Shown: in pieces, positions 58,650-58,715 of the stretch
Layout: every line of letters begins with the position of its first letter
Numbering within the stretch: the stretch's first letter is position 1
Assembly (NCBI RefSeq): GCF_055900595.2
Contig: NZ_CM148325.1
Strand: one strand, 5' to 3'
DNA: 64,000 nucleotides
The notes under the pieces: model-generated
Databases searched by the model: none
What the model saw: the letters and a program-made list of their open reading frames with translations, nothing else
Told to the model about the DNA's origin: nothing
Program-made: the position numbers and the translations under genes

Positions 58650-58670
58650 GCTGTCAGTTCGTAAGTCAGA

Positions 58671-58700
58671 AAGCCGCCGACATGTTCGGCGGTTTTTTTT
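58671..58700 (+). terminator. Intrinsic terminator of the nuo operon
   Basis: GCCGCCGA-CATGT-TCGGCGG followed by TTTTTTTT, 20 nt after the nuoN stop. Confidence 0.85.
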
Positions 58701-58715
58701 GGTGCCCTGACCCCA

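Follow-up and report, generated by a model that had tools for sequence, protein, structure and literature searches.

Does the close adjacency of nuoN and yfbM in this Escherichia coli strain record the loss of genes that K-12 has kept, or is K-12 the exception? In the window, by which we mean the whole stretch of 64,000 nucleotides that was analysed (contig NZ_CM148325.1), the two genes meet tail to tail. A reading made from the letters alone, referred to below as the sequence-only reading, put three additional genes at this place in K-12 and took their absence, together with the state of the neighbouring yfbK and yfbL, as a sign of a variable accessory flank that is decaying in this strain. 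It was right about K-12: the RefSeq annotation of MG1655 gives the order yfbM (b2272), yfbN (b2273), yfbO (b2274), yfbP (b2275), nuoN (b2276). We address what the difference means through the anatomy of the junction, the DNA that K-12 carries there and the state of the site in other genomes.

The nuoN-yfbM junction and its hairpin

The sequence-only reading had placed about 66 bp with one hairpin terminator between the two genes, and the coordinates agree, with nuoN ending at 58649, yfbM ending at 58716 and a hairpin followed by eight T residues between them. The features of the junction are as follows.

57192 to 58649, + strand: nuoN, the last gene of the nuo (NADH:quinone oxidoreductase) operon, an ORF of 485 aa with the stop codon TAA at 58647-58649
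58650 to 58715, no strand: convergent intergenic spacer of exactly 66 bp, the empty form of the K-12 insert site
58670 to 58700, + strand: intrinsic-terminator-like hairpin made up of AAA, a G+C-rich stem of 7-8 bp, a 5-nt loop and T8
58716 to 59219, - strand: yfbM, an intact ORF of 167 aa, convergent to nuoN and matching Pfam PF08974 (DUF1877) with E = 4e-35

Across nuoN and nuoM the DNA is 96.7% identical to K-12 (blastn), and the matching RefSeq genomes annotate nuoN. The hairpin stem starts 24 nt after the nuoN stop codon. Reading along the + strand, the element comprises AAA (58670-58672), the stem arm GCCGCCGA (58673-58680), the loop CATGT (58681-58685), the stem arm TCGGCGG (58686-58692) and, directly 3' of the stem, T8 (58693-58700); in the RNA the stem is CCGCCGA/TCGGCGG and the loop CAUGU. 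The spacer holds both features by which an intrinsic terminator is recognised, a stable G+C-rich stem-loop and a U run directly 3' of the stem. Folding of the + strand RNA gave -26.4 kcal/mol (z = -4.43), and none of 200 shuffled sequences was as stable. The - strand fold of the same hairpin reached -19.7 kcal/mol (z = -1.7), with 13 of 200 shuffles as stable, and on this strand the hairpin is followed by CUUUCUGACUU, a short, interrupted U-tract in the direction of yfbM. The hairpin is kept in K-12, in the strains A21 and ABW_A19, in E. whittamii and in L003, a genome labelled E. coli that is a separate species representative; every insert form described below retains it.

A simple consensus terminator scanner reported no site in the spacer despite the hairpin and T8, probably because pairing between the A-tract and the T-tract makes the stem longer, so that too few T residues stay unpaired behind it. 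We treat this miss as a limit of the scanner and not as evidence against a terminator. A search of positions 58300-60800 against Rfam returned only sub-threshold chance matches (ryfA at 17.5 bits against a gathering score of 80, a fluoride riboswitch at 16 against 34) and no known RNA in the spacer.

From these features we infer that the hairpin acts as a terminator in the cell. The 66 bp would then be an ordinary convergent spacer in which a predicted hairpin of the Rho-independent type ends the nuo operon transcript. Like the Rho-independent terminators found between other convergent genes, the element has a G+C-rich stem of 7-8 bp, a 5-nt loop and T8, and its 5' A-tract gives a partial U-tract on the opposite strand. 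It differs from them in that the U-tract in the yfbM direction is short and interrupted and the fold on that strand is not significant (z = -1.7). Two-way function is for these reasons only a possibility, and the same hairpin may help to end yfbM transcripts from the other strand, more weakly.

The DNA carried by K-12 at this site

Alignment of the window to K-12 with blastn fell into three blocks. The first pairs window positions 56697-58697 with K-12 nuoM/nuoN and the terminator (96.7% identity), the second pairs 58715-60552 with yfbM, yfbL and ~131 bp from the start of yfbK, and the third pairs 60573-64000 with K-12 DNA that runs from the final 40 bp of yfbK across elaD, rbn and elaA to elaB (96.7%). 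The second block, yfbM-yfbL, is only 91.6% identical to K-12, against 96.7% on both flanks. Between the first and second blocks, 2561 bp of K-12 (7440-10000 of the K-12 locus, L001) stand against 17 bp in the window (58698-58714). The flanking genes of MG1655 (b2272-b2276) are the same as in the window and the nuoN terminator hairpin is kept; the difference is that three genes of unknown function replace the 17 bp. This K-12-only DNA has a G+C content of 39.9%, compared with 51.8% for the window and 57% for nuoN. When the K-12 insert segment was compared with the whole window by blastn, only the 47-bp terminator part matched, tblastn with YfbO found no match anywhere in the window, and no remnant of yfbN, yfbO or yfbP was found in it.

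The insert exists in at least three forms. In K-12 it carries yfbP-yfbO-yfbN and measures 2.56 kb. The A21 form (NZ_CP028754) has yfbO-yfbN only, in about 1.63 kb, at 85% identity to K-12. The third form, present in ABW_A19 (L011) and in Escherichia sp. MOD1-EC7003 (L002), has yfbO-yfbN and a gene for a protein of 108 aa annotated SMI1/KNR4. The forms differ by 8-17% in their DNA, and all three have a G+C content of 37-40%. The 108-aa SMI1/KNR4 (SUKH-1) gene lies next to yfbM (5576-5902 in L011, and also in L002), and its protein has a Pfam match below threshold only (E = 0.0014). The SUKH-1 (SMI1/KNR4) family is known from toxin-immunity systems, and the annotation is a hint that yfbO-yfbN may form an orphan module of the immunity type. 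In searches with the K-12 proteins, PADLOC gave no match for YfbN, YfbO, YfbP or YfbM, and Pfam gave a sub-threshold TPR match for YfbP, a sub-threshold UBA-like match for YfbN and nothing for YfbO.

The position of the insert is constant. The sequence-only reading had proposed a check for a conserved breakpoint, and one was found: in every case the insert has the T-run of the nuoN terminator on one side and the stop codon of yfbM on the other. At the left junction GGCGGTTTTTTTATGGT is joined to ATTTATAAAG (that is, ATGGT to ATTTATAAAG) identically in A21 and ABW_A19; the left end differs in K-12, where yfbP is found. The right junction, ...CCCCCAG[G/A]CATCAAGCTAT[A/G] joined to TCA, is common to K-12 and A21. 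These common junctions suggest that insertion took place once or a few times, always at the same position. About 15 bp of the empty site (GGTGCCCTGAC[A/C]CCA) are retained in full by no insert form.

No integrase, transposase or tRNA gene is annotated at the insert in K-12, A21 or ABW_A19, and a search around it for target-site duplications and terminal inverted repeats gave only short matches at chance level. Among the features of a genomic islet, the K-12 insert has the atypical composition and the patchy distribution and lacks the signs of mobility. We also considered a deletion or duplication between paralogues, suggested by a 16-nt similarity between the 3' end of the yfbO-like gene and the 3' end of yfbM. 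This idea was rejected because the proteins are unrelated (BLASTP E = 6) and because recombination between the repeats would not yield the observed spacer. A literature search on yfbN/yfbO/yfbP and on DUF1877/yfbM found nothing about the nuoN-yfbM junction.

The site in other Escherichia genomes

The frequency of each site state was determined in 5426 complete E. coli genomes with a query of 701 bp centred on the junction, counting matches in a single piece that covered at least 80% of it. The uninterrupted junction was present in 4310 genomes (79%), annotated there as yfbM next to nuoN, and its carriers include strains labelled ST95, O26-type 97-3250 and UPEC. The sequence-only reading had named native adjacency of nuoN and yfbM in reference genomes as the observation that would overturn it, and such adjacency is present in these 4310 genomes and also in E. 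whittamii and L003. The arrangement is already known, in that it is annotated in thousands of RefSeq genomes. Junctions such as those of NZ_CP098223 and NZ_CP173596 have the same convergent order of nuoN and yfbM, the 66-bp spacer and the terminator hairpin, and a spacer of 66-68 bp is likewise found in L006 (NZ_CP098223), L007, L008, L003 and L004 (E. whittamii).

The complete K-12 segment was found in 946 of the 5426 genomes. A query taken from the second insert form detected a yfbN/yfbO-type insert in 994 (18%), comprising 962 of K-12 type, 13 of A21 type, 16 at 90-95% identity and 3 that are more distant. The carriers that we recognised (K-12 derivatives, C600, NCTC86 and E. coli C-type strains) we take to belong to phylogroup A. 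Other states occur within the remaining ~2%; in one, ISEc22 (IS66 family) is inserted in yfbM, and in another the nuoN-rbn content is wholly replaced by IS3 and IS1 remnants.

Beyond E. coli, a scan with YfbM over one genome per species recovered four Escherichia loci and none from Salmonella, E. fergusonii or another genus; the contig from E. albertii stops 12 bp beyond yfbM and does not span the site. E. whittamii aligns with the window in one piece across the junction and has a 68-bp spacer. L003 does so with a 66-bp spacer, and its identity to the window across nuoMN-yfbML is no more than 91%. Both spacers have nearly the same sequence as that of the window, including the tail TGGTGCCCTGACACCA before the yfbM stop. 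Escherichia sp. MOD1-EC7003 has a homologue of the insert after yfbM, with 92% identity to K-12 over yfbN.

The closest complete genome, NZ_CP098223, is 100% identical to the window over the 701 bp of the junction; it shows no junction difference, and its divergence from the window lies beyond about 59500. The two sequences are the same from 52350 to about 59500 and differ by 1-5% from 59500 to 62750; the whole alignment of 11.66 kb has 101 mismatches and 8 gap openings. This switch in identity fits a recombination breakpoint inside yfbL. Over nuoG-nuoL (50000-54000), an identity of 99% or more to the window is reached by only 15 of the 5426 complete E. coli genomes, and almost all others, of whatever type, are about 97.6-98.1% identical. 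It seems that the strain either comes from a rare E. coli lineage that branches deeply or carries an unusual nuo allele.

Direction of the change and decay in the flank

Two of the genes beyond yfbM, to whose state the sequence-only reading had pointed, are damaged in the window.

59322 to 60294, - strand: yfbL (M28 peptidase), a pseudogene with W216* at 59646-59648 and an extra A after the ATG
60421 to 60612, + strand: remnant of yfbK that keeps ~131 bp at the 5' end and 40 bp at the 3' end, with a stop codon TGA at 60610-60612

The A-run after the yfbL start codon is A8 in the window compared with A7 in K-12, a +1 frameshift at the start of the gene; in the comparison with the closest genome this extra base, at 60284, is found only in the window. 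The W216* codon is common to the window and that genome, where PGAP annotates an 'internal stop' pseudogene, and codon 216 is intact in L007, L008 and A21 (L009). From yfbK about 1.56 kb are missing between 60552 and 60573 (blastn against K-12). The same deletion junction is present in 2577 of the 5426 genomes (47%), including O157:H7 and E. coli B strains, and is therefore an old common allele that is not specific to the window strain.

The nuoN-rbn interval as a whole is atypical in composition, with a G+C content of about 44% in yfbM and about 34-36% in elaD. The elaD gene (60683-61895, - strand) encodes 388 aa and is 15 aa short at its end compared with K-12 ElaD (403 aa), owing to single-base homopolymer differences from the closest genome near 60694 and 60734; the shortening may be genuine or may come from an error in the assembly. 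A21 lacks elaD between yfbK and rbn and has an intact yfbK, which is another presence/absence state of the nuoN-rbn interval. Just beyond yfbL, at 60300-60850, most genomes are 90-95% identical to the window, and deeply diverged alleles of the yfbM-yfbL accessory segment appear to coexist in E. coli.

Taking the locus as a whole, we consider it highly probable that the window has the empty state of the site, which is the majority and most likely the ancestral one, that K-12 carries an insertion, and that the arrangement in the window is ordinary. The empty state is placed as ancestral because it is the majority state, because both outgroup genomes that span the site are empty, because ~15 bp of the empty site are without a counterpart in the inserts and because the inserts are foreign in composition. 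We infer that the direction was insertion rather than deletion. In a minority of lineages, K-12 among them, the site between the T-run and the stop codon of yfbM would have taken up a low-G+C cassette of unknown function, whose yfbO-yfbN core is accompanied in some forms by the small SUKH-like gene and in some by yfbP. The window strain would then never have needed to lose yfbN, yfbO and yfbP, and its actual gene decay would lie further out, in the yfbL pseudogene and in the old, widely shared internal deletion of yfbK.

The opposite order of events, proposed by the sequence-only reading, is that the ancestor carried yfbN-yfbO-yfbP as K-12 does and that a deletion removed them while the flank decayed. 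Other flank genes are indeed damaged in this strain (yfbL by W216* and a frameshift, yfbK by its internal deletion), insertion sequences have removed the whole interval elsewhere in the species, and the insert has existed long enough to be found in a genome from a second species-level lineage of Escherichia. Yet 79% of E. coli genomes and two further Escherichia species have this junction, with a spacer of 66-68 bp that hardly varies in sequence, and a single precise deletion would have to predate all those genomes. Such a deletion would also have to be squared with the last ~15 bp of the spacer, which are missing from the K-12 form, with the foreign composition of the insert (37-40% G+C) and with a window that holds no yfbN, yfbO or yfbP remnant. 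The frequency of the junction and the outgroup spacers largely refute this account, and we regard it as highly unlikely. An insert dropped during assembly of the window is a practically negligible explanation: nothing specific speaks for it, and single-base homopolymer differences from the nearest genome (60284, 60694, 60734) allow for small errors, whereas the junction matches an independent complete genome at 100% identity and thousands more share the arrangement.

The timing of the insertion is a separate matter. The insert is old, given the 8-17% divergence of its forms and the presence of one of them in a separate Escherichia species-level genome, and this age makes an ancient presence/absence polymorphism indistinguishable from a later insertion spread by recombination. 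It is conceivable, if rather unlikely in our judgement, that empty and occupied forms have been passed through Escherichia by homologous recombination in the nuoN and yfbM flanks and that neither is derived within E. coli. Such a history would suit the existence of at least three insert forms 8-17% apart, far above the divergence of the nuo flank (~97.6-98.1% identity over nuoG-nuoL in almost all E. coli), and the occurrence of one form in a different Escherichia species-level genome. It would also suit the unusual divergence of the adjoining yfbM-yfbL (91.6% to K-12 against 96.7% for nuoMN) and the putative breakpoint inside yfbL between the window and its closest genome. The low G+C content and the minority distribution still point to an original insertion, however, and the two outgroup genomes that span the site are both empty. 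An ancient polymorphism differs from the insertion favoured here in timing alone and leaves the verdict of an ordinary junction unchanged. Under either account the state of the window is not a strain-specific loss.

The absence of yfbN, yfbO and yfbP is accordingly no sign of decay, with an empty junction in 4310 of 5426 genomes, empty outgroups and an insert of low G+C content in only ~18%. The broader description of the flank as a variable accessory locus holds, in view of its low G+C content and the variable nuoN-rbn interval; its decay in this strain holds mainly for yfbL, and yfbN-yfbO-yfbP do not contribute to it. In this way the true decay of the strain, the yfbL pseudogene, can be told from two alleles that are old and common, namely the unoccupied nuoN/yfbM site and the deletion in yfbK. 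More speculatively, the gap between the nuoN terminator and the yfbM stop could be a fixed cargo site of Escherichia with at least three diverged cassette versions, possibly an orphan module for immunity or defence that persists as a presence/absence polymorphism, with the window as an empty site; we hold this wider proposal to be doubtful.

In itself the nuoN-yfbM junction matters little, being an ordinary gene junction with a conventional terminator for which K-12 is the unusual reference. The yfbN-yfbO(-yfbP) cassette behaves like a small insert that has several alleles, keeps to one site and shows no machinery for mobility. K-12 is not an ancestral reference, and genes that appear to be 'missing' relative to it are often acquisitions of K-12.
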